DNA from: a virus
Taxonomy: Duplodnaviria > Caudoviricetes
IMG/VR virus record: IMGVR_UViG_3300015171_000007
Span: 1 to 53,592 of that record
DNA: 53,592 nt
Strand: one strand, 5' to 3'
Part shown: positions 293-53,592 of the stretch, one piece after another
Layout: every line of letters starts with the position of its first letter
Numbering within the stretch: position 1 is the stretch's first letter
Position numbers and translations under genes: made by a program
Notes under the pieces: model-generated
Seen by the model: only the letters and a program-made list of their open reading frames with translations
Databases searched by the model: none
Told to the model about the DNA's origin: nothing

Positions 293-330
293 TGCCGCGC
301 TCGGCTGTCGCCGTCAACTAATCTTTGCGC

Positions 331-963
331 ATGGGAGAAACGGTCGTTCAGGTCAATCGGTTGACCGGTGGTGCGCTCGCATTAACGCACGCCCGCGAGT
401 TGACGGGTCGCCCGTATGTGTGGGGCGGCACGTGGCCGAAGTCGGGCGGGACCGATTGCTCGGGGCTCTGGCAGTACGCCTACGGCAAGGTCGGCGTCCT
501 CCTCGCGCGCACCACCTACGAGCAGTATCTCGAGTTCCCAATTCCCAACTCGTGGCCGAGCGAGCCGGGCGACCTCTTGTTCATCTCGGGTAGCGACGCC
601 ATCGGTGCGAAGCCCGGTCACGTCATGGCTTATGTCTCACCGGGTCAGGTATTCCAAGCCGAGTACACGGGTGGACCGCCCATTGGTCAATTCCCTGCCA
701 ACACGAACGTCTTTGAGTACCGCACGCGCCCCGCGCTCGCGCTCCCGATGCCGAAGGCGCCCGCGACGAAGAACCCGAGCGCGTTGCAACTCTCGTCCTC
801 GGGTCTCATCCTTCTCACGTCACCCGCGAAGGCGCGCCTCGCGCTCGCGAACGGGTGGTCGCTCTATATGTGGGAAGGGTGGGAGTTCGTCGTCGAGACC
901 AATCCGAACGTCAAGGGCCGACCGCTCTACGCGAACTTCGACTACGTGCAAAAGCGTCACTAG
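331..963 (+). CDS. NlpC/P60 cell-wall peptidase (probable endolysin)
   Basis: PYVWGG...DCSGL, PGDLLF and GHV motifs; ATG 331 lies just after TAATCT (320-325), suggesting a leaderless start. Confidence 0.85.
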   Translation: MGETVVQVNRLTGGALALTHARELTGRPYVWGGTWPKSGGTDCSGLWQYAYGKVGVLLARTTYEQYLEFPIPNSWPSEPGDLLFISGSDAIGAKPGHVMAYVSPGQVFQAEYTGGPPIGQFPANTNVFEYRTRPALALPMPKAPATKNPSALQLSSSGLILLTSPAKARLALANGWSLYMWEGWEFVVETNPNVKGRPLYANFDYVQKRH

Positions 964-1909: not shown

Positions 1910-2961
1910 GCAACCCAACCCCAGCCGAACTCGCAGCACACAACCTCATCCGAGACTACGTCGCGCCAGAGCGCGTCGCTGGGAAGAAGGGCGCTAAGCA
2001 TTTTGAGCACGCGCCGACCGTCGTCATCGAGCAGTACCGTACGGTCTCGCCGACGACCATCGTCGTGCCCGAGACGTGGGACCAGACGGGCGGGCTTACG
2101 CATCAAATCGGGATGCTCGGCAACGACGGCGAGGGCGACTGTGTCGTCGCGGCATTCGAGCATGGGCGGATGTTCAAGGCGCTCGTCTCGTTCGTCGGCG
2201 GCATCATTACGTGGGCGCACGAGTTTCGACCAGCGCACGCGGCCTACACGCTCCTCATCTACTGGGCCTACGGCCGATGGGTGGGCGAGCCCGGCCTGCG
2301 CCCCGACAACGGCGCCAACCCGCTCGAGTACGCCAAGTTCGCCTTCGCGCACAATCTCACCGACGCCTTCGGTCTCGTCGACCTCTCGGACCCGTCGACG
2401 AAAATTGCGAACCTCAAGCAAGCCGCCGTCGAGTTCGGCGGGCTGCTCGTGTGCGTCAACCTCACCGACGACGCGATGGGCCTATTCAACTCCGGCCAGA
2501 CGTGGAACGTCGCCAACGGTCAACAGCCGAACCCGCAGGAGGGTCATGGAATCTGGCTCGACAAGTTCGACTCGTCGACCGGGCTCATGTACTTCGCGAC
2601 GTGGGGCTTCGCCGACCAGTCGGCGACCGAGGCGTGGGTACTCGCGTGCGTCACGTCGGCTATCGCGTTCATCTCGAAGGAGCAGGCGGCGGCGGCGGGC
2701 GTCGACGTGGCCGCGCTTATCGCGGCCTGTCAGGCTCTCACCGACGGACAGGGCATCGCACCGGCCGCGAGCGAGGCTCCGGCGGCGCACGTCGACCGGG
2801 CGCTCACCCCGTCGAGCATCATCCACGACGTCGAGGTCGAGTGGGACAAGTTCACGCCCCAACTCCGCCGCGTCGTCACGCTCGCCGTTCAGCGCGAGTC
2901 GGTCACGGTCATCGCGAAGGAACTCGGCATCGCTCTCAAGATGCTCCTCAGGACGCTTTGA
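1906..2961 (+). CDS. papain-like (C1-type) cysteine peptidase
   Basis: MLGNDGEGDCVVAA (Cys), EGHGI (His) and FATWG motifs in papain order. Confidence 0.65.
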   Translation: MSNPTPAELAAHNLIRDYVAPERVAGKKGAKHFEHAPTVVIEQYRTVSPTTIVVPETWDQTGGLTHQIGMLGNDGEGDCVVAAFEHGRMFKALVSFVGGIITWAHEFRPAHAAYTLLIYWAYGRWVGEPGLRPDNGANPLEYAKFAFAHNLTDAFGLVDLSDPSTKIANLKQAAVEFGGLLVCVNLTDDAMGLFNSGQTWNVANGQQPNPQEGHGIWLDKFDSSTGLMYFATWGFADQSATEAWVLACVTSAIAFISKEQAAAAGVDVAALIAACQALTDGQGIAPAASEAPAAHVDRALTPSSIIHDVEVEWDKFTPQLRRVVTLAVQRESVTVIAKELGIALKMLLRTL

Positions 2962-3542
2962 GTCGCCACGACCAACTGACGCTCTACGTGCCGCCGTGCT
3001 CGGTGCGGTTCTTCCCCGAGGGCGAACACTGTAACGACGCGGTCGACGGCGACCTCATCATCGTCAAGCACTCGACGATATGGGCCGACGCAATCTCGGC
3101 CGCGCAGCACGCGCTCGCGCTGACGCACCCCGAGTTCGCGGGGTACACGTGGGGCGAACACTCGGCCATCGTGCGCGGCCACGACGCCGACCTACGGACG
3201 ATGCTTTCGGAGATGGGACCGCGCGGCTACGAGCGGCGCGCCCTGTTCGACTATCAGGCGCACCTCTACGCCGTCATCCATTTCGAGTGCTCGGCGGTTC
3301 AACGCGTGGCCGCGATGCGTAACGACCTCGCGTGCGCCGACGTCGACTACGGGTGGCTCGAGTTCGCGGCGGACATCCTCGACGGGCTCATCGACGCGGA
3401 GTTCGTCGGGTCGTGGGGCGACTCGATTATCTGCTCGGTCCACTGCACGCTCGTACTCATGGCGATGGGCCTGTTCCCCGACGTAAACCCGGCGAAAGCA
3501 ATTCCCGCGAACCTCGCACTCTGGACCGGGGCGAAGCACTAA
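2958..3542 (+). CDS. permuted papain-like NlpC/P60 (YiiX/YebB-like) protein
   Basis: GDLIIVK, EHSAIV (His first), DYG, IICSVH (Cys last); TTG start overlapping upstream TGA; 3' part of track ORF 2076..3542. Confidence 0.6.
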   Translation: MSRHDQLTLYVPPCSVRFFPEGEHCNDAVDGDLIIVKHSTIWADAISAAQHALALTHPEFAGYTWGEHSAIVRGHDADLRTMLSEMGPRGYERRALFDYQAHLYAVIHFECSAVQRVAAMRNDLACADVDYGWLEFAADILDGLIDAEFVGSWGDSIICSVHCTLVLMAMGLFPDVNPAKAIPANLALWTGAKH

Positions 3543-3551: not shown

Positions 3552-3624
3552 AGCGGTGTGGCGCAATTGGAAGCGCGCCGGGTTCATAACCCGGAGGTTG
3601 CTCGTTCGAGTCGAGTCACCGCCA
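3552..3624 (+). tRNA. tRNA-Met(CAT), initiator-like
   Basis: Cloverleaf: acceptor AGCGGTG/CACCGCC with 1:72 mismatch, D stem GCGC/GCGC, anticodon stem CCGGG/CCCGG with loop TTCATAA, T loop TTCGAGT; no encoded CCA. Confidence 0.93.
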
Positions 3625-3747
3625 CGAGGCCAAGTCGGGTAGACTCGCCTCACGGCGATTCCCGAACTTGACAACTTAGGTGCGGGAGTCGACTGCTTCT
3701 GTCCAAGAAGCACGAAGGCCCGGTCGTCCGTCGACCGGGCCTTCGTG
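3625..3747 (+). ncRNA. candidate small RNA (three hairpins) antisense to early-gene RBS motif
   Basis: Hairpins at 3631-3670, 3694-3712 (TGCTTCT-GTCCA-AGAAGCA) and 3711-3747; CTTCTGTCCAAG is the reverse complement of CTTGGACAGAAG. Confidence 0.45.
3711..3747 (+). terminator. 16-bp perfect hairpin, probable terminator (no U-tract)
   Basis: CACGAAGGCCCGGTCG-TCCGT-CGACCGGGCCTTCGTG. Confidence 0.65.
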
Positions 3748-3773
3748 ATTCCGGCGCGATGTCACACCCGTCG

Positions 3774-3791
3774 CGTATAGTCGGGTATCCG
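3774..3791 (+). promoter_or_regulatory. early promoter -10 (TATAGT) overlapped by a degenerate operator palindrome
   Basis: CGTATAG-TCGG-GTATCCG, 16/18 match to the boxes at 7577 and 12433. Confidence 0.65.
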
Positions 3792-3825
3792 GCCTAACGT
3801 GGGTCGGGATTGGACAGGAGGCATC

Positions 3826-4716
3826 ATGGCAGCAAAGAAACCGGCGACGCTCGACGTCGTCTCCACCGCGAAACTGCTCGGGCTCGGAGAGGTGGACGTC
3901 AAGCCCGCCGCCGAGGACGAGCGGTTCCACTCGGTCACGACCATCATCGGCGCGCTCGACAAGCCCGCGCTGATGTACTGGGCGGCAGAGCAGACCGCAG
4001 AACTCGCCGTCAGTGTCGCGAGGTCACTACCGCACCGCGTCGAGGAGGAGGGACACGACGCCGTCGTGAAGTGGCTACGCGACGCGCGGTTCCGACCACC
4101 GAAGGGCCGCAAGTCGGCGAGCGAACTCGGGACGGCCGTCCATGACGCGTGCGAGAAGTACGCCATCACGGGCATCCGACCCGAGGTCGACGACCCCGAG
4201 GTCGAGCCGTTCCTCGACCGCTTCGACGAGTGGGCGCAGAAGTGGCAGCCCGAGTACCTCGCGGCGGAGGCGGCGGTCTACAACCTCAAGTACCGCTACG
4301 CGGGCACGCTCGACGCTATCGCCATCATCGACGGGGCGACCGTATTGCTCGACTACAAGTCGTCGCGTAAGTCGCTCGACTCGCAGGGGAAGCCGACGAA
4401 GCCCTACCCCGAGGTCGGCCTGCAACTCGCGGCCTATCAGAACGCCGAAATCATGGCGGTCTGGCGGGCGCGGCGGTTCGAGAGTTATCGGCGTCGGTAC
4501 TACCTGCTCTCGCCCGACGAGAAGGTCGAGGGAATCGAGATGCCGAAGGTCGACGGCGCGATGGCGCTCCACCTGACGCCCGAGCACGCCGACCTCTACC
4601 CCATCGACACCAGCGACAAGGTGTTCGAGTCGTTCCTGTACACAATCGAGATATTCCGCTGGACAAACACGACGCAGAAGGGCGTCGTCGGTCCGGCTCT
4701 AACGAAGGGAAACTGA
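3826..4716 (+). CDS. PD-(D/E)XK exonuclease (RecB/Cas4-like)
   Basis: SVTTII, GTAVH, AE, YAGTLD, LLDYKS and LQLAAY motifs; RBS GGAGG. Confidence 0.85.
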   Translation: MAAKKPATLDVVSTAKLLGLGEVDVKPAAEDERFHSVTTIIGALDKPALMYWAAEQTAELAVSVARSLPHRVEEEGHDAVVKWLRDARFRPPKGRKSASELGTAVHDACEKYAITGIRPEVDDPEVEPFLDRFDEWAQKWQPEYLAAEAAVYNLKYRYAGTLDAIAIIDGATVLLDYKSSRKSLDSQGKPTKPYPEVGLQLAAYQNAEIMAVWRARRFESYRRRYYLLSPDEKVEGIEMPKVDGAMALHLTPEHADLYPIDTSDKVFESFLYTIEIFRWTNTTQKGVVGPALTKGN

Positions 4717-6124: not shown

Positions 6125-6220
6125 GGCGTAGAGTCGGCGGTCCGCACGCAACGAGCGGCGAGGTCGAACAACAACCTCGCCGCTCGGCGTCGGCCTATCG
6201 GGAGAATCGAAAGGACAGAA

Positions 6221-7576: not shown

Positions 7577-7626
7577 CGTATACTCGGGTATACGGGGAAC
7601 CCCGGGAAGTGCCTTGGACAGAGGAG
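7577..7626 (+). promoter_or_regulatory. 50-bp promoter/operator/RBS cassette, copy 1
   Basis: CGTATACTCGGGTATACGGGGAACCCCGGGAAGTGCCTTGGACAGAGGAG; 49/50 identical to 12433..12482. Confidence 0.85.
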
Positions 7627-7631
7627 AAATA

Positions 7632-7931
7632 ATGGAAGTCACTACAAGCCAGTCAGTCGTACGAGTTCAGTTCGCTGAGCGCGACGGCACGATGGTCGAG
7701 GTGTTTGAACTTGCGGTCGACGGCAAAGGACTTTGGGCCTGCGAGACCGTGTTCGCCATCCTCAACTCGTACCCCGACGAGATGTTCTGCGCGGCGCAGT
7801 ACCGCCCGCAGGTCGAGGCGTTCCGCAAGCAAGGTCGTCGCTCGATGAGCGTCGGCGACGTCCTCGTCGTCGACGGCACGCGCTACGAGTGCGCTCCGAT
7901 GGGTTTCACCACGACGTCGGAGGTGAAGTGA
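7632..7931 (+). CDS. YodL-like domain protein
   Basis: RSMSVGDVLVVDG...CAPMGF motif; RBS GAGGAG. Confidence 0.6.
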   Translation: MEVTTSQSVVRVQFAERDGTMVEVFELAVDGKGLWACETVFAILNSYPDEMFCAAQYRPQVEAFRKQGRRSMSVGDVLVVDGTRYECAPMGFTTTSEVK

Positions 7932-12432: not shown

Positions 12433-12482
12433 CGTATACTCGGGTATACGGGGAACCCCGGGAAGTACCTTGGACAGAGGAG
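12433..12482 (+). promoter_or_regulatory. 50-bp promoter/operator/RBS cassette, copy 2
   Basis: Near-identical to 7577..7626; -10 TATACT at 12435-12440. Confidence 0.85.
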
Positions 12483-12487
12483 TCAGA

Positions 12488-13288
12488 ATGACCGTAGTTA
12501 CCGAAACCACCACCGAAGTTACCGAGCCGAGCCTGCACCTCGAGTCGGCCGAGACGCTCGAGTTCGTGTTCGTCGCGAGCGCGAAGCAGGACGTAGCGAT
12601 GAACGAGGCCGGGCTCGTCGCCGACTACGCGGGAGGGTGGAGGTATCCGAAGGGCACCGCGAAGGCGCGCTACACCATCAACGCGACGAAGGTCGGCACC
12701 TACTCGCTCGCGCTTGGCAAGGTCGTCAAGTCGAACGAGTCGATGCGCCGCTCGGCGAACGCCTGCATAAAGGCGCTCGTCGACGGCTTCGCCGAGGCGG
12801 TCGACAAGATGGAGCAGCGAAACGCGAGTATGGTCCGCGCTGCGCAGTACGAGGTCGCTCAGTCGCGTCGTACGTTCGAGTGGCACGTCGAGTACGCCGC
12901 GAGAAACGGCGACCGAGTCCAGGCCGACGCGTTCCACGGAGCGACGAAGTCGGCCGCGCGGTACTCGTACTCATTCGCTGGCGTCGAGGTTTCGGCGTTC
13001 GCGAAGATTGCCAAGGAGGGCGACGTCGCGAAGTACGGTGACACGTTCGCCGTCGAGGTCGGTCAACCGCTCGTCGGGTGGGAAATCGACGGCGAACCGT
13101 TCCGTGACCCCGAGGTCCTCTACGTCACGTTCCTCGAGGCGAAGGGCGCCGCCAACACGAAGTTGTGCGAGAAGGTTCTGGCCTACCGCGACAACGAAAT
13201 CGAGCAGGGCGAGAGCATGATGCGCGCGCTCATCGCGGCCGGGTTCGACCCGTTCGCCGCCTGCGAGAAGGGAGGCGAGAACAACTGA
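12488..13288 (+). CDS. hypothetical early protein
   Basis: Strong RBS GAGGAG, typical codon usage. Confidence 0.75.
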   Translation: MTVVTETTTEVTEPSLHLESAETLEFVFVASAKQDVAMNEAGLVADYAGGWRYPKGTAKARYTINATKVGTYSLALGKVVKSNESMRRSANACIKALVDGFAEAVDKMEQRNASMVRAAQYEVAQSRRTFEWHVEYAARNGDRVQADAFHGATKSAARYSYSFAGVEVSAFAKIAKEGDVAKYGDTFAVEVGQPLVGWEIDGEPFRDPEVLYVTFLEAKGAANTKLCEKVLAYRDNEIEQGESMMRALIAAGFDPFAACEKGGENN

Positions 13289-13355
13289 GCGAAACGCGGC
13301 GCGCGACCACTTCGCGCCCGCGTCCACCGGGCCAGTAGTCCCGGTGCTGACGAGC
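13281..13355 (+). ncRNA. type II hammerhead ribozyme
   Basis: GC-GAAA(13291)-stem III-GTC(13322-24)-stem I CACCGGG/CCCGGTG-CTGACGA(13347)-GC; loop I CCAGTAGT can pair with upstream ACAACTG. Confidence 0.88.
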
Positions 13356-13392
13356 AAATGACCCGTCTGAAATCTTGGACAAGGAGCATCAC

Positions 13393-14613
13393 ATGAACAC
13401 AGGCATCAAACTCGAAACGCGGAACGCGAGTCTCTCAGACCTCGCCGACCTCCTCAAGGACCAGCAGGCCGCGAAGGTCGACCTCGTCGTGCCGATGTCG
13501 AAGTTGACGTCGCGCGACGGCGTCATCGCCGTCGACGGCTCGGGCGTGTTCACCGACCAGAGGTTCGCGCCGACGGCTATCGCCGACGGACACCTCGCCG
13601 AGAAGTTGGGCGTGCCGGTGACCTACCTCCGCAAGATGCGGGCCGGGCGCGTCGACCTCTACGACGCGAACGTCAACGGGTGGGCGAAGGGCTCTATCCA
13701 CGAGGGCATCGCGGCGGGAGGCAAGGCCGACGCGCGCTCGGTGCTTCTGCGTACGTTCCAGTCGGGCGACCCGAGCGAGGTCGGCGTCTTGCGCGCGGTC
13801 CTCTCGGACAAGTACGGCATCATCGACAACTTCGACGTCCTCGTCGCGGCGCTCGAGGGCGCTCGTGACGCGGGCACCGAGGTCGAGGTCGTCGGGTGTG
13901 ACCTGACCGAGACGAGGATGACGGTCCGCATCGCGGCGCCAGAAATCTTCACCAACGCGCCGGAGTTGCTCAAGGGCTACCGTAACCCGTTCGGCGGCGA
14001 CGGCGTCTACGACCACTCGAACGGCCAGCGCCGATTCCTCCCGACGATTCCGCAGTGGGCGAAGGACAAGTTCGGCGCCGACGACAACGGCGTCGTGTTC
14101 GCGGGGCTCGTCCTCGCGAACTGCGAGACGGGCGGCGGGGCGTTCACCATCGTTCCCCGGTTCACGGTCCTCTCGTGCCTTAACGGGATGATGATGACGC
14201 AAGACGCGCTCCGCCAGATTCACCTCGGCGGGCAACTCGAGTCGGGCGTCGTCAAGTGGTCGGGCGACACGCAGCAGAAGGCGCTCAAGTTGGTCACGGC
14301 GCAGGCGCGCGACGCGGTCGCGTCGTTCCTCGACCGCGACTACATCGACGCCTCGCTCGCGAGGTTGGCGGAGAAGGCGGGCGTCGCGGTCACGAACCCG
14401 GTCAAGGCCATCGAGGTCGTCGCCAAGACGCTCTCCTTCACCAACGAGCAGCGCGACGGCATCCTCGACCACTTCATCCGGGGCGGTCAGGTCACGGCGG
14501 GCGGCGTCATGCAGGCGGTGACCTCGTTCGCGCAAACCGTCGAGTCGGCGGACGCGGCCTACGACCTCGAGGCGACGGCGGTTCGCGCGCTCGAGATTGC
14601 GGCGGCGCTCTAA
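13393..14613 (+). CDS. DUF932/DUF945-like protein
   Basis: RAVLSDKYGIIDN, NCETGGGAF, CLNGM, RQIHLG and VMQAVT motifs. Confidence 0.7.
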   Translation: MNTGIKLETRNASLSDLADLLKDQQAAKVDLVVPMSKLTSRDGVIAVDGSGVFTDQRFAPTAIADGHLAEKLGVPVTYLRKMRAGRVDLYDANVNGWAKGSIHEGIAAGGKADARSVLLRTFQSGDPSEVGVLRAVLSDKYGIIDNFDVLVAALEGARDAGTEVEVVGCDLTETRMTVRIAAPEIFTNAPELLKGYRNPFGGDGVYDHSNGQRRFLPTIPQWAKDKFGADDNGVVFAGLVLANCETGGGAFTIVPRFTVLSCLNGMMMTQDALRQIHLGGQLESGVVKWSGDTQQKALKLVTAQARDAVASFLDRDYIDASLARLAEKAGVAVTNPVKAIEVVAKTLSFTNEQRDGILDHFIRGGQVTAGGVMQAVTSFAQTVESADAAYDLEATAVRALEIAAAL

Positions 14614-18871: not shown

Positions 18872-20110
18872 ATGACCACACCGACCTACGCTCGAGTGAA
18901 ACTCGACAAACTCACCCCGCACCCGCGCAACGCCCGTCAGGGCGACGTCGGCGCCATCGTCTCGTCGCTCGAGGCGCACGGCCAGTATCGCGCGCTCGTC
19001 GTGCAGAAGTCCACCGGCTACATCCTCGCGGGGAACCACACCTACCGGGCGATGCTCGCGCTCGGCTGGAAAGACGCGCATGTCAACTACCTCGACGTCG
19101 ACGACGAGACCGCGCTGCGTATCCTGCTCGTCGACAACCGCTCGAGCGACCTTGCGACCTACGACGACGACGCGCTGGCGTCGCTGCTGCGGGAACTGGC
19201 TGGGACCGAGACCGCTCTCGTCGGCACGGGGTTCGACGGCGACGAACTCGACGCGCTGCTGTTTCGGATGGCGCGCGATGCGGAGGTCAACGCGCGCCTG
19301 CTGGCGACCCCGAATGACGTCCCGGCCGTACCTGCTACCCCGCGTACGAAAGAAGGCGACGTGTGGGCGATGGGGGGGCACACGGTGCTATGTGCTGACG
19401 CCACGGACGGGGAATCGGTCAAACGGCTCATGGGCGGCGGCGTGGCCGACTGCTTGTGGACCGACCCGCCCTACGGGGTCAGTTACGTCGGCAAGACGAA
19501 GGACGCGCTCACCATCGCGGGCGACGAGGCCACCGGTCTGCTTAAGTTGCTTGAGGCGGCGTTCGCGAACGCCGCGATGGTGCTGGCGCCCGGTTCGCCG
19601 TGGTACATCGCCGCTCCATCGGGACCGCGTTGTCTCGACTTCCTCGACGCGCTCCGCAATACCGAGCCGATGCGACTTCACCAGATGCTGGTGTGGGTCA
19701 AGAACACGATGGTGCTCGGGCACTCGGACTATCACTACCGCCACGAGTTGGTGCTCTATGGATGGACCGCTGGCGTCGGTCGCGCGGGACGGGGAATGCA
19801 CAAGGGCACCAAGTGGTACGGCGACGACAGCCAGACCAGCGTGCTCGAGTTCGACAAGCCCGCCGCCAGCGAACTGCACCCGACCACGAAGCCGGTCGGC
19901 CTCATCGAGAAGTGCCTGTTGAACAGCACGAAGAACGGCGACGTCGTGCTCGACCTGTTCGGCGGCTCTGGCTCGACGATGATTGCCTGCGAGCAGATTG
20001 GGCGGGTGGCGCGGGTGATGGAGTTGGACCCGCGCTACGTCGACGTCATCGTCACCCGGTGGGAGCAGGCCACGGGCGAGAAGGCGAAGCGCGAGCGGCG
20101 GCGCAAGTAG
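18872..20110 (+). CDS. ParB-like N-domain fused to an N4/N6 DNA methyltransferase
   Basis: LTPHPRNAR...ILAGNH (ParB-N); TDPPY, HPTTKPV and VLDLFGGSGST (beta-class MTase). Confidence 0.9.
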   Translation: MTTPTYARVKLDKLTPHPRNARQGDVGAIVSSLEAHGQYRALVVQKSTGYILAGNHTYRAMLALGWKDAHVNYLDVDDETALRILLVDNRSSDLATYDDDALASLLRELAGTETALVGTGFDGDELDALLFRMARDAEVNARLLATPNDVPAVPATPRTKEGDVWAMGGHTVLCADATDGESVKRLMGGGVADCLWTDPPYGVSYVGKTKDALTIAGDEATGLLKLLEAAFANAAMVLAPGSPWYIAAPSGPRCLDFLDALRNTEPMRLHQMLVWVKNTMVLGHSDYHYRHELVLYGWTAGVGRAGRGMHKGTKWYGDDSQTSVLEFDKPAASELHPTTKPVGLIEKCLLNSTKNGDVVLDLFGGSGSTMIACEQIGRVARVMELDPRYVDVIVTRWEQATGEKAKRERRRK

Positions 20111-30300: not shown

Positions 30301-30316
30301 GTCTACTCGGGTAGAC
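30301..30316. promoter_or_regulatory. operator-like palindrome variant
   Basis: GTCTAC-TCGG-GTAGAC: same spacer as the early operators, with symmetric substitutions. Confidence 0.55.
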
Positions 30317-30358
30317 GTCCTCGGCTAGACTCAACGAGTCGACTTGGAAGGGGAATCC

Positions 30359-30505
30359 ATGAAGCACCGCGTCATCCGCAACATCACCGTACGACCGCCG
30401 GACGCGAGCCGCGCGCCGCGCTCGCACGTCAAGGTCGTCGAGTTCAGTCTCCGAGCGTCGGCTCCTCGGGGTTCCTACTTCGCGAAGCGGCCCGGTGAGG
30501 GGTAG
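30359..30505 (+). CDS. small basic hypothetical protein
   Basis: RBS GGAAGGGG; 48-aa ORF overlapping the next start. Confidence 0.4.
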   Translation: MKHRVIRNITVRPPDASRAPRSHVKVVEFSLRASAPRGSYFAKRPGEG

Positions 30506-35109: not shown

Positions 35110-38100
35110 TTGGCAATTCTCCACGTTCAGTCAGTCGCGAACGCTTCATGGACAGCGGCGTCACCTGCCACCGCCGTTATCAACAACGTCGTTGTAGACA
35201 ACTCGCTCATCATGACGTTCGCCATGCTTGGCACCTCGATGACGTTCGCCTCAACGGTGGTGGACGCCACTGGCGACGTGTGGGTCAAGTTACAGCAGAC
35301 GAACCAAAACACTGCCTACAGCACGCAGGACAACGAAACATGGTGGCTGCCACACGCCAAGTTCGCGGGCACGCACACGCTCACCGTAACCTACGGCGGC
35401 ACCCCCTACGCTGCGGTCGATACCCAATACACCCTTGACGAGTTCAGCGGAATCGAGGACAAGGACAGTTCGGCAGCGGTGGTGACTGGCACGGGCACAT
35501 CTTTCTCGGCCACCACCGGGACCGCCACCGAAGTTGGCGACCTCGCCTACGTCATCGGTATCAGCCCGACGAATGGTGGCGTAAGCACTTTCCCATCAGC
35601 GCCGTGGACCAACGTCAGCGGGACCGCCTCGGCCGTAGTGAGTCTCCCTGCGTGGCAGGTGATGACTTCAAAGACTGCGGTCACAGCGACGTGGACGAAG
35701 GGCACTTCCTCGGCGTGGGCGACTCAATGGCTGCTATTCCGCCCACAGCCATTCAATAATCCGATTCAACCACCGCCCTTTAAGTTCGGCCCGCCCATCG
35801 GCCCGCCACCGCTGCGAGCATTGCTGTTCGGTCGGCCCACGCTATTCGGCGCGGGGCCGCCGAACGTCTCGCTCTCGGTCACGGCGACCGACTCCTCACT
35901 TAACGCCGACGCGGCCGTCGTCTCGAGCGCGCACCCGCGCACCGCCGCCGACGCGAGCGCGAACACGGACTCGGCCATCCATACGAGCGGACCGTACCTC
36001 CGAACCGCCTCAGACGCCTCGCTAAACGCTGACGCCGTCTTGCGCGCCTACGGACCGACTCGCACCGCGACCGACTCGAGCCTCAACGCTGATGTCGCGT
36101 CGAGCACGCGCAACCTCGGCCGCACGGCAACCGACTCGAGCGTGAACACAGACTCGGCGTCGCGCCTTCCCGCCGCTATCGCTCGGCTCGCCGTTGACGC
36201 AAGTCTCAACACCGACGTCGCGTCGAGCACGCGCTCGACCGTACGGACCTCGAGCGACTCGTCGCTCAACTCCGACTCGTCGGTCCGCTCGAACGGTCCC
36301 TACCTCCGTACCTCGAGCGACGCCTCGCTCAACGGTGACTCGGCGACGCTGGCCGCGCTCGCGCTCTCGAGGTCGGCCTCGGACGCCTCGGTCAACTCTG
36401 ACGTCGCCGCCCGGACCCGAACCACCCCGAGGACGTCGACAGACGCCTCGGTCAACGTAGATTCGGCCACGAGAGGGCCGCAAACGGCCCAAAGGACCGC
36501 CTCGGACGCCTCGGTCAACGCTGACGCCGCACTACGGCTGTTAGGGCCGTCTAGGGCCGCTACGGACGCCTCGGTTAATGCCGACTCGGCGACCGCTCAG
36601 CGGACCCTCGGGCGGGTCGCGACCGACTCCTCGATTAACACCGACCTCGCGAGCCGCGCCGCGCAGACCGCGAGCCGCTCGGCGGCGGACTCAAGCACGA
36701 ACGCCGACACCGCGACCCGGGCCATCTCGCTCTCGCGCCTCTCGAGCGACTCGTCGACGAACATCGACTCTGCGAACCGCTCGACGCTCTCGCTCACGCG
36801 CGTAGCGGCGGACTCGAGCAACAACACCGACTCGGCCAGTCGCGCGCAGGCGGTCACGAGGTCATCGACCGACTCCTCGGCGAACACCGACTCGGCCACG
36901 CGCGCCGCTCAATCCTTCGCTCGAGTCGCGGCCGACTCGTCTCTCAACTCGGACATCGCATCGAGGAGCGCGACCTTCGTGCGCGGGTCGACCGACTCGT
37001 CGGTCAACACCGACAGCGCGGCTCGAAGTATTCCCGTGACGCGAACCTCGTCGGACGCCTCGAGTAACAGCGACGCGGCAACGCGCGCGACGGCCATCGC
37101 GAGAGTGTCCGCCGATACGTCGGTGAACGCGGACGCCGCGTCTCGGTCCGTCGCTCCGTCGCGGTCCTCCTCGGACGCCTCGGTCAACTCGGACATCGCG
37201 TCTCGGACGGCCGAGTCGTTCTCACGCTCGGCGACCGACGGCTCGACCAATACCGATACCGCAACGCGCTCGGCGAGTCGGACTCGTACGAGCATCGACA
37301 CGAGCCTAAACTCGGACTCGGCATCGAGGTCGTCGCTCATATTCGCTCGCACGGCTATCGACTCGAGCGTCAACGCCGACGCCGCGCTCATCTCGAGTAC
37401 GCGCTCGAGGTCGTCGACCGACGCGAGCGTGAACACGGACTCGGCGAGCCGGTCGAACGTCTCGTGGTCGAGGTCGGCGGCGGATAGCAGCGCGAACGCC
37501 GACGTCGCCGGTCGCTCGGTCGGACCCTCTCGCTCGGCTACAGACTCCTCATCTAACACCGACGCCGCCACCCGCTCGACTCAATCGTTCGGCAGGTCGG
37601 CGACCGACCCGTCCCTCAATACTGACGTCGTGTCGCGCAGCCAAGCCGTTCTGCGCTCGGCCTCCGACGCGTCGATGAACGCCGACGCAGCCGCGAGGAC
37701 CGCGTTGAGCATTATCCGCTCGACGTCAGACACATCGCTGAACACCGACGCGGCGGGCCGCACTCGGTCGACTTCGCGAACCTCGGCCGACCTAAGCCTT
37801 AACGCCGACGTCGCGTCGCGCTCGCTCGCCCTGACGTTGCGCTCGGCCACGGACGCATCGGTCAACACCGACGCGGCGGCTGCGCTCGGCTCGAGGTCTC
37901 GTTCGGCGACCGACCTAAGCCTTAACGCTGATGTCGCGTCGCGCTCGCTCGCTCGAATAAGGTCTGCGGTCGACTCCTCGACGAACGCCGACGTCGCGCT
38001 ACGGACCGTCGGCTTTGGCAGGACCTCCGTCGACTCCGCTATCAACACCGACGTAGCGTCGCGCTCGTCGATAACGACTATCCGCGTCGCGTCGGACTCA

Positions 38101-39867
38101 AGCGTGAACGTCGACGTCGCGACGAGGCTCCGCGCATTAACGCGCACGTCGACCGACACGAGCCTGAACTCTGATTCGAGTGTTCGCTCAATCCCCGTTT
38201 CGCGAACGACCTCGGACAACAGCGTCAACACCGACGGGGTCATCCGTACTTTGAGCATCTCGAGAACCTCGAGCGATTCCTCACTCAACTCCGACTCCTC
38301 CGCTCGAACCCGCTCACTGTCCCGCATAGCGACCGACTCTAGCGTCGATACGGACTCCGCGACGGCCTCGTCGAGACACGCTCGGACGGCCTCGGATGTT
38401 TCTCTCAACGGTGACGCGGCGACCCGCACGGCGGAGTCGCTCACCCGCAGCGCCACGGACTCGAGCCTCAACGCTGATACGGCAACTCGAACCCCGTCGA
38501 TAGCGCGCTCGGCCTCGGATGTCTCGACGAACGTCGACGTCGGTACGCGGTCCCTCTCCCTCGTGAGGGCCGCGTCCGACGACTCAACGAACAGCGACGC
38601 CGCAACTCGGGTCGCGAGTGCTTCTCGCGCTACCGCTGACGCGGCGACCAATTCGGATGCGGCGACGAGGGCTCGGTTCGCCGTTCGTCTCGCCGTCGAC
38701 TCTAGCCTGAACTCGGACGTCGCGACGAGGGCTCTCACGGGCTCGAGGTCTGGCACGGACTCGTCGGAGAACACCGACTCGGTAAGCCGTGCGCTCGTCG
38801 AGGGCCGCGTCGTCTCGGACACCTCGACGAACGTCGATGCCGCCACCCGGTCAGGTGCTCCATCGCGGGCGGCGACCGACTCTAGCGCGAACGTCGACTC
38901 GGCGGCGAGGGCGCTCGGGGCCACCCGCTCGGCATCCGACGGCTCGGCCAACGCCGACGTCGCGACGCTCAGAACGGGTATCGCGCGTACTGCCGCCGAT
39001 GCCTCGCTAAACGCCGACTCAGTAGTGAGGTCGGTCTCTCTCACTCGCTCGGCAACTGACGCGAGTACGAACATCGACTCGGCGTCGAGGTCGCTCCCCT
39101 CGACGCGCAGCGCGGCCGACGCCTCGGTTAACACCGATTCGACCTCACGCACCCCGGTCGTTATTCGCAGCGCGGTCGACGCTTCTCTCAACGCCGACAC
39201 CGCGCCGAGGTCGCTCGTCGAGGCGAGGGTTGGCGTCGATACCTCGACGAACGACGACTCGGCGACCCGGTTGGTCGCTCTCGCGCGGACCTCGACGGAC
39301 TCGAGCGCGAACATCGACGCTGTCTCGAGGGCCGTCTTGTCGGCTCGCAGCGCCTCGGACGTCTCTACCAACGGCGACGTCGCCGCGCTCGGGACCAGCC
39401 TCGCTCGCTCGGCGGTCGACGCCTCACTCAACGCCGATGCCGCCCATAGGTCGCTCGCCGAGGTGCGGTCAGGCTCCGACACCTCGACGAACTACGACTC
39501 CGCCGCGCGCTCCGGGTTGGGGGCTCGCACGGCTAACGATACCTCGACGAACGACGACGTCGTGACCCGAGCCGAGGGAATCCTCCGCGCCGCCGTTGAC
39601 TCGAGTCTCAACGACGACGCGGCGACCTCGAGCATCTTCGGCGGACTGACGGCCACCGACTCGAGCACGAACAGCGACGCCGCGAGCCGTCTCGTCGCCG
39701 CGACCCGCTCGGCCTCGGACTTGTCACTCAACACCGACGTCGCCGTGATAACCGCCGCAATCATCGTCGCCGTCGCCGGAATGTACCAGCGCGCACCTCT
39801 CCCGCCCTACCGCGCGCGGACGCTCCGGCGCGGGTCAAACGGTCGCTCGTCGCCTCGTCGTCGGTGA
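35110..39867 (+). CDS. 1585-aa tandem-repeat protein (putative filament/fibre)
   Basis: ~215-aa N-domain, Pro linker, about 55-60 repeats of 22-23 aa (RxAxDxSxNxDxAxR), Arg-rich tail. Confidence 0.85.
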   Translation: MAILHVQSVANASWTAASPATAVINNVVVDNSLIMTFAMLGTSMTFASTVVDATGDVWVKLQQTNQNTAYSTQDNETWWLPHAKFAGTHTLTVTYGGTPYAAVDTQYTLDEFSGIEDKDSSAAVVTGTGTSFSATTGTATEVGDLAYVIGISPTNGGVSTFPSAPWTNVSGTASAVVSLPAWQVMTSKTAVTATWTKGTSSAWATQWLLFRPQPFNNPIQPPPFKFGPPIGPPPLRALLFGRPTLFGAGPPNVSLSVTATDSSLNADAAVVSSAHPRTAADASANTDSAIHTSGPYLRTASDASLNADAVLRAYGPTRTATDSSLNADVASSTRNLGRTATDSSVNTDSASRLPAAIARLAVDASLNTDVASSTRSTVRTSSDSSLNSDSSVRSNGPYLRTSSDASLNGDSATLAALALSRSASDASVNSDVAARTRTTPRTSTDASVNVDSATRGPQTAQRTASDASVNADAALRLLGPSRAATDASVNADSATAQRTLGRVATDSSINTDLASRAAQTASRSAADSSTNADTATRAISLSRLSSDSSTNIDSANRSTLSLTRVAADSSNNTDSASRAQAVTRSSTDSSANTDSATRAAQSFARVAADSSLNSDIASRSATFVRGSTDSSVNTDSAARSIPVTRTSSDASSNSDAATRATAIARVSADTSVNADAASRSVAPSRSSSDASVNSDIASRTAESFSRSATDGSTNTDTATRSASRTRTSIDTSLNSDSASRSSLIFARTAIDSSVNADAALISSTRSRSSTDASVNTDSASRSNVSWSRSAADSSANADVAGRSVGPSRSATDSSSNTDAATRSTQSFGRSATDPSLNTDVVSRSQAVLRSASDASMNADAAARTALSIIRSTSDTSLNTDAAGRTRSTSRTSADLSLNADVASRSLALTLRSATDASVNTDAAAALGSRSRSATDLSLNADVASRSLARIRSAVDSSTNADVALRTVGFGRTSVDSAINTDVASRSSITTIRVASDSSVNVDVATRLRALTRTSTDTSLNSDSSVRSIPVSRTTSDNSVNTDGVIRTLSISRTSSDSSLNSDSSARTRSLSRIATDSSVDTDSATASSRHARTASDVSLNGDAATRTAESLTRSATDSSLNADTATRTPSIARSASDVSTNVDVGTRSLSLVRAASDDSTNSDAATRVASASRATADAATNSDAATRARFAVRLAVDSSLNSDVATRALTGSRSGTDSSENTDSVSRALVEGRVVSDTSTNVDAATRSGAPSRAATDSSANVDSAARALGATRSASDGSANADVATLRTGIARTAADASLNADSVVRSVSLTRSATDASTNIDSASRSLPSTRSAADASVNTDSTSRTPVVIRSAVDASLNADTAPRSLVEARVGVDTSTNDDSATRLVALARTSTDSSANIDAVSRAVLSARSASDVSTNGDVAALGTSLARSAVDASLNADAAHRSLAEVRSGSDTSTNYDSAARSGLGARTANDTSTNDDVVTRAEGILRAAVDSSLNDDAATSSIFGGLTATDSSTNSDAASRLVAATRSASDLSLNTDVAVITAAIIVAVAGMYQRAPLPPYRARTLRRGSNGRSSPRRR

Positions 39868-44832: not shown

Positions 44833-45077
44833 GCGACACGAAGATTCACCCGACCAACGCGTTCGGTCTCGACGACGAGGTCACGCGCGACCACAAGGCC
44901 AACGCCGAGAAGCGCGGCGCCGAGAAGCAAGTCCGCCAGTCGGCGCAGCGCGCGCGACGCGAGGGACGGGCCGTCACGGTTCCACGTGAAACATCGCCGC
45001 TCCGCTCGAGCGGCCAGCCCGGAGACGACAGTGAGCCGGACGTCGCAGCGCCGACACCGTCGGACGTCGATGCCTAG
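44829..45077 (+). CDS. hypothetical protein (contains parS, read as VPRET)
   Basis: RBS AGGAG, ATGA coupling. Confidence 0.55.
   Translation: MSDTKIHPTNAFGLDDEVTRDHKANAEKRGAEKQVRQSAQRARREGRAVTVPRETSPLRSSGQPGDDSEPDVAAPTPSDVDA
44978..44993. promoter_or_regulatory. parS-like site
   Basis: GGTTCCACGTGAAACA, 15/16 match to TGTTNCACGTGAAACA. Confidence 0.7.
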
Positions 45078-52563: not shown

Positions 52564-53231
52564 GCGGTATCGACCCGAGCACCCACCGCATTATCCGTAA
52601 GTTGGCTGATTCGATGGTCCACGAATCGAACAAGCCGATTCCCAGTGTGTCCAAACTTGAGTCAGTGTGGGGAATTGTTGACTCGATTCAGGCGGGGCCA
52701 CCGAAGTCGCTGAGCGTCTTTCTCGGCGGCTCTACGTTCACGCTCGACCCGGTGACTCATCGCCCAGTCGCAGGCTCGATTCGTGGCATTAAGTTCATCG
52801 CGTCGTACACGCCCGCCGTCGGCGACACCGTGTTTGGGATGCGCACGGGCACGAACATCTCCGACGTGGTGATTCTCGGCGCGATGGCTGGAGCGGCAGA
52901 TAGTGGAGTGCCGGGGCAGGTCGCATGGGCGATAGACGGTCCGCTCGCAGTCCCGCACGACTTCCCCGGCGGGTTCATCTACGTTCCAGTAGGTGCAACG
53001 GTCAAACTCATGCTCGGTTTCGGACAGGTTCAGAGCGGTTCGGTGAACATCACCATTAAGGACAACGGAGTCGCCATCCCAGGACTGACGTCAATCACAG
53101 TGACCACCACTGCGGCTCCGCACACTATGACGTCACCGCACAAGTTCACCGCGAATCGCCTTCTGACCCTCAGCACAAACTCCGGAGCGGCGACAGGGCT
53201 CTCTTTCTCCGCTTACACGTCGGCGGCTTAG
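52560..53231 (+). CDS. minor tail protein
   Basis: SYTPAVGDTV...VILG OB-fold-like motif; position in tail module. Confidence 0.6.
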   Translation: MSGIDPSTHRIIRKLADSMVHESNKPIPSVSKLESVWGIVDSIQAGPPKSLSVFLGGSTFTLDPVTHRPVAGSIRGIKFIASYTPAVGDTVFGMRTGTNISDVVILGAMAGAADSGVPGQVAWAIDGPLAVPHDFPGGFIYVPVGATVKLMLGFGQVQSGSVNITIKDNGVAIPGLTSITVTTTAAPHTMTSPHKFTANRLLTLSTNSGAATGLSFSAYTSAA

Positions 53232-53355: not shown

Positions 53356-53592
53356 ATGACGTACGCCTACGTTGTCAACGACTTCGACAACACCGTCACC
53401 AAGATTGACCTCTCGACCTTCGCAACCGTCGGCTCTGCACTTGCAGTGGGGGCCAGCCCCTTCTCCATCGCTATCGACCCCACCGGCACCTACGCCTACG
53501 TCGCGAACCTCACCGGCAGCACCGTCACCAAGATAAATCTCTCGACCTTTACCACGGTCGGCGCTGCACTTGCGGTCGGGGCGAACCCCATC
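53356..53592 (+). CDS. YVTN-type beta-propeller repeat protein, N-terminal part (3' truncated)
   Basis: MTYAYVVNDFDNTVTKIDLSTFATVGSALAVGASPFSIAIDPTGTYAYVANL...; same repeat as 2..292. Confidence 0.85.
   Translation, partial: MTYAYVVNDFDNTVTKIDLSTFATVGSALAVGASPFSIAIDPTGTYAYVANLTGSTVTKINLSTFTTVGAALAVGANPI

Follow-up and report, generated by a model that had tools for sequence, protein, structure and literature searches.

A short sequence lying immediately 5′ of a terminator-like hairpin in the genome of an uncultured tailed soil phage (Duplodnaviria; Caudoviricetes; IMG/VR virus record IMGVR_UViG_3300015171_000007, analysed over its whole length of 53 592 bp and referred to here as the window) is complementary to the ribosome-binding sites of four genes of the same genome. 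This sequence (the anti-box, or box) and its four complements (the tags) are, to judge from the alignments described below, a conserved and co-varying pair in a family of uncultured phages. Pairing of box and tags as RNA is probably functional. The favoured explanation, to which a probability of about 0.5 is given, is that a trans-acting RNA carrying the box pairs with the tagged early mRNAs and blocks their translation; we infer the existence of this RNA, its action in trans, its repressive effect and its timing.

Four copies of the tag core TTGGACA were found on the + strand of the window, at 3810, 7614, 12470 and 13375, each located 9–11 nt before an ATG (9 nt at the first site and 11 nt at the other three), and the tag consensus was (C)TTGGACA(G)(A)GGAG. 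The reverse complement of (C)TTGGACA plus the Shine–Dalgarno sequence is present at 3696–3707 (CTTCTGTCCAAG). A first-pass annotation of the window had proposed that the complement of a small hairpin with a GUCCA loop precedes four start codons, and the hairpin, in the predicted fold, and all of the coordinates and sequences that it gave were recovered. The partial matches that it reported near the replication initiator gene (GGACAGAAATG at 6213) and the 48-amino-acid open reading frame (ORF) starting at 30359 (CTTGGA at 30343) are also present, the latter being a weak candidate target.

The first three tags are found in leaders behind promoter-like elements. The element of the first early unit, TGTCACA-N9-TATAGT, differs from those of the second and third units, which contain the palindrome GTATAC-TCGG-GTATAC (7578–7593 and 12434–12449) with TATACT inside it. 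A related palindrome, GTCTAC-TCGG-GTAGAC, in which both arms are changed and the symmetry is kept, is located at 30301–30316, and a further palindrome-related sequence, AAGTCGGGTAGAC, occurs at 3632, just 3′ of a tRNA gene. The pattern TASTCGGGTA was represented by 10 copies in the window, compared with 2.7 expected, and by its sequence this promoter-associated palindrome resembles an operator that overlaps with the −10 region. A single difference separates the leader of unit 2 from that of unit 3 in a 51-nt stretch running from the promoter element through the tag, as read by eye from a 75-nt comparison (60 of 75 positions identical). The fourth tag is preceded not by a promoter but by a match to the type II hammerhead (13287–13363, + strand; 42.2 bits, Rfam gathering score 37), and the TTGGACA core is therefore kept in four different contexts. 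Self-cleavage of the predicted hammerhead would give the mRNA of the gene that follows (phrog_1362) a short structured leader.

The anti-box is part of a trailer (3626–3750) with strong predicted structure (−75.9 kcal/mol, z = −8.33; none of 200 shuffled sequences folded as well). The first-pass annotation had described this structure as three hairpins, whilst the number predicted was four (3626–3651, 3653–3695, 3695–3711 and 3711/3712–3746/3747). GUCCA forms the loop of the third, and the fourth, which has a G+C-rich stem of 15–16 bp, would end both the proposed RNA and the tail-gene block that precedes it. No Rfam family matched the trailer at the gathering score, the only match being one of 22 bits to a microRNA model, which is at chance level, and no match was obtained when the element of five relatives was searched against Rfam. 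The predicted duplexes between box and tags comprise 11–16 bp, with the seed in the accessible GUCCA loop, which is complementary to the initiation regions. For the module as a separate RNA, pairing was predicted with all four leaders, at a gain of 11–16 kcal/mol (ΔΔG on cofolding −12.5, −16.1, −14.7 and −11.1 kcal/mol for sites 1–4, respectively). Ranked by duplex energy with 3690–3712, the four targets took positions 1, 2, 3 and 5 among 170 + strand ORF starts, the site at 12469 being first.

Relatives were sampled through the gene that carries the first tag, which encodes a PD-(D/E)XK exonuclease. This protein had 1166 metagenome relatives at E ≤ 1e-10, the best of them 76 % identical. A protein-pattern scan with the single exonuclease sequence gave no match and an alignment-based scan was needed, so loci were fetched using an alignment of 38 exonuclease relatives, which resulted in 57 viral-contig, 80 metagenome-contig and 17 genome-contig loci. 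When viral contigs were scanned for exact matches to the 15-nt hairpin core, the 16-nt promoter palindrome and a promoter pattern, unrelated phages were returned, as BLAST and inspection showed.

The region upstream of the exonuclease gene was read in 21 loci. Five of these (L286, L188, L189, L191 and L130) had enough upstream sequence and possessed, in this order, a strong hairpin, a TGTCACA..TAnnnT promoter-like element and a tagged ribosome site, and in all five a box complementary to the locus's own tag was found 0–5 nt 5′ of the hairpin. The cassette precedes either the exonuclease gene or a short ORF before it. L286 (75 % identity) is one of these five. Promoter and tag were also present in L190, in which the contig ends 100 nt upstream, and the promoter region was present in the distant relatives L137 and L144, which had neither tag nor box; in the remaining loci read, other ORFs directly precede the exonuclease gene. 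L133 and its duplicate L134 came from an automatic scan; the cassette in these lies in front of an HNH gene 750 nt further upstream. Six lineages (L286, L188, L189, L191, L130 and L133) share the order seen in the window, namely anti-box, terminator, promoter and tagged ribosome site, and in several relatives the terminator stem is followed by a T-rich tail.

The sequences of box and tag differ among the six further lineages, yet they remain complementary over 7–13 nt. The window pair (box/tag) is GUCCAAG/CUUGGAC. In L133 it is CUUCUAUCUCCAA/UUGGAGAUAGGAG (13 bp including one G:U pair), and between UUGGA and the Shine–Dalgarno purines the change from C to GAU in the tag is matched by a change from G to AUC in the box. 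The pair in L189 is UCCAAGUUCGG/CCGAACUUGGA (11 bp); L188 has UUCAUCCAAGUUG/CAACUUGGGUGAA at the proximal site and a distal tag, CCAACUUGGA, that forms 10 exact base pairs; L191 has UCCCAAGU/ACUUGGGA; and in L130 (CUCCAGG/CCUGGAG) CUUGG has become CCUGG where CCAAG has become CCAGG. In L286 (UCUGUCCAAGA/UCUUGGACAGG) the 10-nt core CTGTCCAAGA is identical to that of the window inside a diverged, poorly conserved trailer. The anti-box hairpin of L286 has lost one base from each arm of its stem (CTTCT/AGAAG to CTCT/AGAG), the terminator stem co-varies, and its promoter and leader share about 90 % identity with those of the window. Coordinated change of seed and target in related phages, which the first-pass annotation had named as a check on its proposal, was therefore found in all six.

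Two of the relatives have further features beside the box. In L130, 8026–9633 is the gene directly upstream of the anti-box, and it matches phrog_850 (E = 1.7e-67), whose annotation is RNA-binding protein. The 3′ untranslated region of L191 (610–662) contains a direct tag-like sequence, CCTTGGGGAAA, about 30 nt before the anti-box, and this copy could mask the box within the same RNA.

The specificity of the pairing was assessed with a self-versus-cross matrix of duplex energies, in which each of six boxes was paired with the tagged start regions of all six lineages from which the boxes came (L286 was left out). The best sum was that of the diagonal: only the true assignment, one of 720 permutations, reached it, whether the best site or the proximal site alone was used. 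In five of the six rows the best partner of a box was its own tag. Of 1000 shuffled boxes tried per lineage, 0, 2, 0, 0 and 0 performed as well as the real one in five lineages and 33 did so in L130. Three distal start codons were picked by the matrix script inside the tag, which shortened those target windows; the result for proximal sites alone is unaffected.

A strict scan of 118 non-redundant loci was also carried out, requiring a hairpin of at least eight pairs and, 40–170 nt downstream, an ATG with a Shine–Dalgarno sequence and an ORF of at least 40 amino acids. Complementary runs of at least 11 nt (no more than one G:U) between the 5′ flank of the hairpin and the start region were found in five of 354 cases on the forward strand and in none of 273 on the reverse strand. 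One hit, L161, lies in apparent coding sequence and is probably due to chance. In the whole record containing L133 (50 658 bp), the 12-mer tag occurs three times in the forward direction, always before a start codon, and once in reverse, as the box, compared with 0 and 0 for controls read backwards. The record containing L130 has two exact forward tags and the box (two mismatches), in a noisy search in which the controls gave 4 and 2, and L188 has three tags. Across the seven lineages there are several tagged genes where these were counted, and the inverted copy is always single.

A number of results weigh against the proposed RNA switch. Within the window the excess of TTGGACA is modest (six copies, with 2.23 expected and two of 100 shuffles reaching six), a count that the first-pass annotation had put forward as a test and that lends its proposal limited support. 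The copies other than the four tags are the inverted one (3700–3706) and one at 52648 on the − strand, inside a coding region, which looks like chance. There was no excess in the window of CTTGGACA with up to one mismatch (24 copies, 23.2 expected) or of CTTGGACAGAGG with up to two mismatches (5 copies, 3.15 expected); with up to one mismatch the latter 12-mer has three copies, at 7613 and 12469 (+ strand) and 3696 (− strand). The expectation that the four sites would head a genome-wide ranking, which held approximately among ORF starts, did not hold among all 30-nt + strand windows, where targets ranked 2, 8 and 9 and the site at 3810 fell outside the top 15; rank 1 went to 35143, and unrelated GC-rich coding sites were among the top duplexes. 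In the relatives, the match in L130 is short (7 nt), the box is partly paired in the minimum-energy folds of L191 and L286, and a permissive scan (any ATG or GTG, weak Shine–Dalgarno match) revealed no enrichment over control flanks. The lineages share a homologous cassette and are not fully independent, and the first relatives were picked by eye. No RNA run is listed as containing the window sequence. Contigs from four DNA runs (two studies) representing near-identical phages showed no differences within 3552–3830, and therefore give no information on co-variation at the micro-scale.

These modest statistics would be expected if the tag were merely a shared, duplicated leader and ribosome site, and its inverted copy a chance occurrence in an ordinary 3′ hairpin. 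Two of the leaders are indeed near-identical duplicates, and chance runs of 10–13 nt are common in this GC-rich DNA. A chance inverted copy is nevertheless disfavoured, and this explanation as a whole is very improbable, given that six further lineages have such a match in other sequences, that only one of 720 permutations does as well, that the strict scan gave hits on the forward and none on the control strand, and that a 10-nt island of identity is present within the diverged trailer of L286.

The position of the box and the nature of its mismatches bear on whether it functions as RNA or as DNA. It is located beside the terminator in the 3′ untranslated region in every lineage. In predicted folds it occupies a loop of 5–7 nt in the window, L133 and L189 and is largely unpaired in L188 and L130, and the small stems are kept although their sequences differ among lineages. 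All five differences read between the complement of the box and the tags in the window and L133 place a G opposite a U of the box, and are G:U compatible on the + strand. Position by the terminator, placement in loops or unpaired stretches, kept stems and G:U-type differences favour an RNA function. It would be improbable on these grounds that the tag is instead an asymmetric operator for a phage DNA-binding protein, of the same sort as the stoperators of Cluster A mycobacteriophages, with the inverted copy serving as an additional operator or as a partner in looping. Phage repressors are known to use repeated asymmetric sites close to gene starts that co-evolve in specificity, and the palindrome that accompanies the promoters makes protein control of these units likely in any case. 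Such an operator would not account for complementarity that extends into the Shine–Dalgarno purines, or for an inverted copy that is always single and always 0–5 nt 5′ of a terminator stem.

A second explanation at the DNA level is that the box and the first tag are inverted repeats around a terminator–promoter module that is flipped by a recombinase. Inverted repeats of 11–13 bp do flank a segment of approximately 100 bp that carries the promoter, but the right-hand repeat is a ribosome site of which other genes have copies, and contigs of the four runs showed no strand-changing joints, although contigs drop rare forms. No integrase, repressor or recombinase was identified among the 30 larger window proteins in a scan that was not exhaustive, and to that extent the remark in the first-pass annotation that the phage lacks an obvious CI or integrase stands. 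An invertible promoter is accordingly the most far-fetched of the readings considered.

The proposal that the box acts in trans has to be weighed against one in which it acts only in cis, as an insulator; energetically, both modes are feasible. The box would then function solely in tail-block transcripts that read through the terminator, pairing with the ribosome site of the first early unit some 110 nt downstream, so that translation of the exonuclease unit would be blocked on late read-through RNA or a site for double-strand cleavage would be made, and the other tags would be conserved for a different reason. The minimum-energy fold of the read-through RNA (3685–3865) does close a helix between 3696–3707 and the ribosome site at 3806–3823 (summed pair probability 10.55 of 12), and action in trans is therefore not required for the proximal pair, a further point against it. 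The box lies directly upstream of one tagged unit in every lineage, and the absence of a T run behind the window terminator makes read-through plausible. Set against this, the box is upstream of only one of the four tagged units in the window and of only one of three in both L133 and L188, and distal tags match it as well as or better than the proximal tag in the window and in L188 (10 nt exact at distal sites versus 8 nt at the proximal site in each). The T-rich terminator tails of several relatives would leave little read-through, and they make a discrete terminated RNA plausible. Action in trans is favoured because there is one box per three or four tagged units, because distal tags match at least as well as proximal ones in two of the three lineages with several known sites, and because several relatives have T-rich tails; a role in cis alone is considered less likely, and is a serious alternative.

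If the box does act in trans, the active molecule would be a short non-coding RNA of about 70–100 nt with its 3′ end at the terminator hairpin, produced either as the 3′ end of a transcript that spans the tail-gene block and the tRNA, or from a TAnnnT promoter immediately behind the tRNA. It would display the anti-ribosome-site box CUUCUGUCCAAG right 5′ of the terminator, with GUCCA in the 5-nt loop. The loop would make contact with the lineage-specific part of the tag, UUGGAC, which is directly 5′ of the Shine–Dalgarno sequence in the first genes of several early units, and the duplex would then grow across the Shine–Dalgarno sequence (11–16 bp) and exclude the ribosome. Translation of the exonuclease gene and of the three other unit-leading genes would be expected to fall together, whether the effect served late shut-off, constant damping or immunity.

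With respect to the origin of this RNA, a TAnnnT hexamer was found 27–56 nt upstream of the box in all seven lineages (chance of at least one hexamer 0.34–0.64 per lineage, joint chance about 0.004). By sequence, these hexamers are weak candidates for a promoter of its own that would give RNAs of about 70–100 nt; a consensus promoter scan identified no promoter-like site for the small RNA. TAATCT at 3540, which had been suggested as its promoter, contains the stop codon of the upstream ORF and is unsupported as a promoter.

A tRNA gene adjoins the element in two of the seven lineages, the window and L286. In L191 a tRNA-Gln gene is located about 490 nt upstream of the element, and no tRNA was found in the available stretches of L188, L189, L130 and L133. 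The tRNA–small RNA precursor envisaged in the first-pass annotation is therefore not a conserved feature. The central idea of that annotation holds, and its tRNA precursor, its promoter and its immunity reading are unsupported. The window tRNA-Met has an A1–C72 mismatch and GGG/CCC next to the anticodon loop, which are initiator-like; assignment as an initiator tRNA was dropped in view of the L286 copy (1208–1281), which has GGA/UCC in the anticodon stem. Approximately 200 mycobacteriophage records carry a tRNA-Met that is about 80 % identical to the window tRNA, Bxz1 being among the matches listed.

The window has a G+C content of 65 %, is complete according to CheckV and has almost all of its genes on the + strand. 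The gene layout, assigned from PHROG matches (Table 1), places the element after a tail-gene block and ahead of the first early gene. In L133 the same order is found on one unbroken stretch, with the tape measure gene, minor tail genes and a few unknown genes followed by the element and then by the HNH and exonuclease genes.

Table 1. Positions of the element, the tagged ribosome sites and the main genes in the window
Feature	Position	Strand	Basis or remarks
Minor-tail-like gene	325–963		Left window end; ORFs without assignment then run to 3542
tRNA-Met (CAT)	3552–3625	+	ARAGORN; Rfam RF00005, 61.8 bits
TAGACT	3640–3645	+	Possible −10 hexamer (TAnnnT) for the small RNA; weak
Long trailer hairpin	3653–3695	+	Predicted folds; poorly conserved in the alignment with L286
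Anti-box hairpin, GCUUCU-GUCCA-AGAAGC	3695–3711	+	Predicted fold; GUCCA is the loop
Terminator-like hairpin	3711–3747	+	G+C-rich stem of 15–16 bp, loop UCCGU, no T run behind
Promoter-like element of first early unit, TGTCACA-N9-TATAGT	3760–3781	+	Conserved in L286, L188, L189, L191, L130 and L133
Tagged ribosome site 1, TTGGACAGGAGG	3810–3828	+	ATG 3826; PD-(D/E)XK exonuclease gene
Tagged ribosome site 2, CTTGGACAGAGGAG	7613–7634	+	ATG 7632; gene of 99 amino acids (phrog_34641)
Tagged ribosome site 3, CTTGGACAGAGGAGTC	12469–12490	+	ATG 12488; gene of 266 amino acids
Tagged ribosome site 4, CTTGGACAAGGAG	13374–13395	+	ATG 13393; gene of 406 amino acids (phrog_1362)
Partial tag, CTTGGA	30343–30361	+	ATG 30359; ORF of 48 amino acids; behind palindrome at 30301–30316
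PD-(D/E)XK exonuclease gene	3826–4716	+	PHROG match
Early and DNA-metabolism genes	~3.8–17 kb		PD-(D/E)XK exonuclease, Gp3-like protein, replication initiator
Small terminase gene	17.3 kb		PHROG match
Large terminase gene	20.4 kb		PHROG match
Portal gene	26.5 kb		PHROG match
Major head gene	40.0 kb		PHROG match
Major tail gene	42.7 kb		PHROG match
Tape measure gene	47.0 kb		PHROG match
Tail gene	50.6 kb		PHROG match

No close relative of the window phage was found among isolated phages, and a 488-amino-acid ORF upstream of the element had no match in a search of the same set. The exonuclease is about 33 % identical to exonucleases of Arthrobacter and Microbacterium phages, and the hosts of this phage group are probably Actinobacteria.

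Several other features of the window were recorded. Two long + strand ORFs in different frames overlap upstream of the tRNA (1906–2961 and 2076–3542), and conservation in L188 and L286 is confined to the C-terminal part of the second; a frameshift, an assembly error or two genes are possible explanations. Between the small and large terminase genes, 18872–20110 encodes a DNA methyltransferase with a fused ParB-like domain (phrog_498, E = 2.3e-112). A + strand ORF of 1585 amino acids (35110–39867) contains 25–29 copies of degenerate 60/63-nt repeats and has no PHROG match, and in the same region a crude filter on third-position G+C content also selected several opposite-strand ORFs, so that either strand may be the coding one. 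The two ends of the window share a 221-nt direct repeat (11–231 and 53359–53579) that is 85 % identical and so is not an exact terminal repeat; it may reflect related tail-gene segments.

If the proposed RNA switch exists, a private sequence at the side of the Shine–Dalgarno sequence would mark the early or non-structural gene set, and one looped RNA would turn the whole set down. The RNA would be the last product of the long late block, and transcription time itself would set the delay. Antisense control in phages is represented by a few classic cases, each governing one operon. One RNA that addresses several units via a private tag would be a simple way of switching off a temporal gene class; for phages of high-GC Gram-positive hosts it would be the first to be proposed.

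The closest published likeness to the tag itself is the start-associated sequence (SAS), a motif of 13 bp that occupies the ribosome-site position of non-structural genes in Cluster K phages, with a single oppositely oriented copy in K1 phages and with both RNA and protein binding named as possibilities (Pope et al., 2011; PMC3203893). A similar motif, with a role described as unclear, occurs in Cluster EF Microbacterium phages (Jacobs-Sera et al., 2020; PMC7302621). SAS/ESAS and the window tag are alike in being conserved, asymmetric Shine–Dalgarno motifs that precede the start codons of non-structural genes in one orientation, and in both a further conserved element is located upstream. They differ in number and length (16–17 copies of a 13-bp motif, compared with four copies of a 7–12-nt tag), and the window tag has no similarity to the published SAS consensus, either GGGATAGGAGCCC or GGGAAAGGACCCC.

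Phage Anaya possesses 16 forward SAS copies and one reverse copy (44871–44883), which forms a 10-nt hairpin loop, CCUCCUAUCC, closed by GCGCGG/CCGCGC, in the 385-nt gap between gp96 and gp97. A search with the region of this inverted copy gave matches in 138 phage records, of which 134 covered at least 80 % of the query; four of six aligned phages have an identical loop, and the region has diverged in Keshu. Unlike the window box, the Anaya copy is near the right genome end, and is neither after the tail genes nor directly before a terminator. In Ekdilam the loop (CCUCCUUCCCC) differs while 17 forward SAS copies keep the consensus, so there is no strict co-variation. The link between the window element and the Cluster K SAS is thus a lead with partial support, and it is possible, though rather doubtful, that actinobacteriophages use a general tag/anti-tag translational switch of which the SAS of Clusters K and EF, with its single inverted copy, is the same device. 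The element offers a testable hypothesis for SAS, the function of which is called unknown in PMC3203893 and PMC7302621, and as Cluster K phages grow on Mycobacterium smegmatis the link could be tested at the bench although the window phage is uncultured. A literature search for relevant transcript data, for a prior explanation of SAS-type motifs and for small-RNA reports in actinobacteriophages found none among the papers listed.

Among RNA regulators, the C4 RNA of phages P1 and P7 and the CI RNA of P4 are the precedents that the first-pass annotation invoked, and they are apt in principle. Both are small phage RNAs with short, partly looped sequences that are complementary to targets at or near ribosome-binding sites, RNA and target change together between related phages, and maturation is by tRNA-processing enzymes, which would fit the tRNA adjoining the element in the window and L286. 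C4 and CI are contained in one transcript with their targets and are processed from its leader, whereas here a terminator and a promoter-like element separate the box from its first target. They control one operon (an antirepressor, or the replication genes of P4) for immunity, whilst three or four separate units are tagged here; moreover, the window element follows the tail genes and the hosts are probably Actinobacteria.

Bacterial small RNAs provide two further comparisons. Those derived from 3′ untranslated regions and ended by a terminator have their seed immediately before an intrinsic terminator that also serves an mRNA, and the C-rich-loop small RNAs of Gram-positive bacteria, including Actinobacteria, pair a pyrimidine-rich loop with the Shine–Dalgarno region of several mRNAs. 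The proposed RNA differs from these in being phage-encoded, in having the phage's own early genes as targets and in taking its specificity from a private tag beside the Shine–Dalgarno sequence. In its outcome it would resemble the coordinated post-transcriptional shut-off of many early mRNAs in phage T4, which also operates via a feature of the ribosome-binding site. That control is exerted by proteins, the nuclease RegB, which cuts at GGAG, and the translational repressor RegA, whereas here it would be exerted by an RNA.

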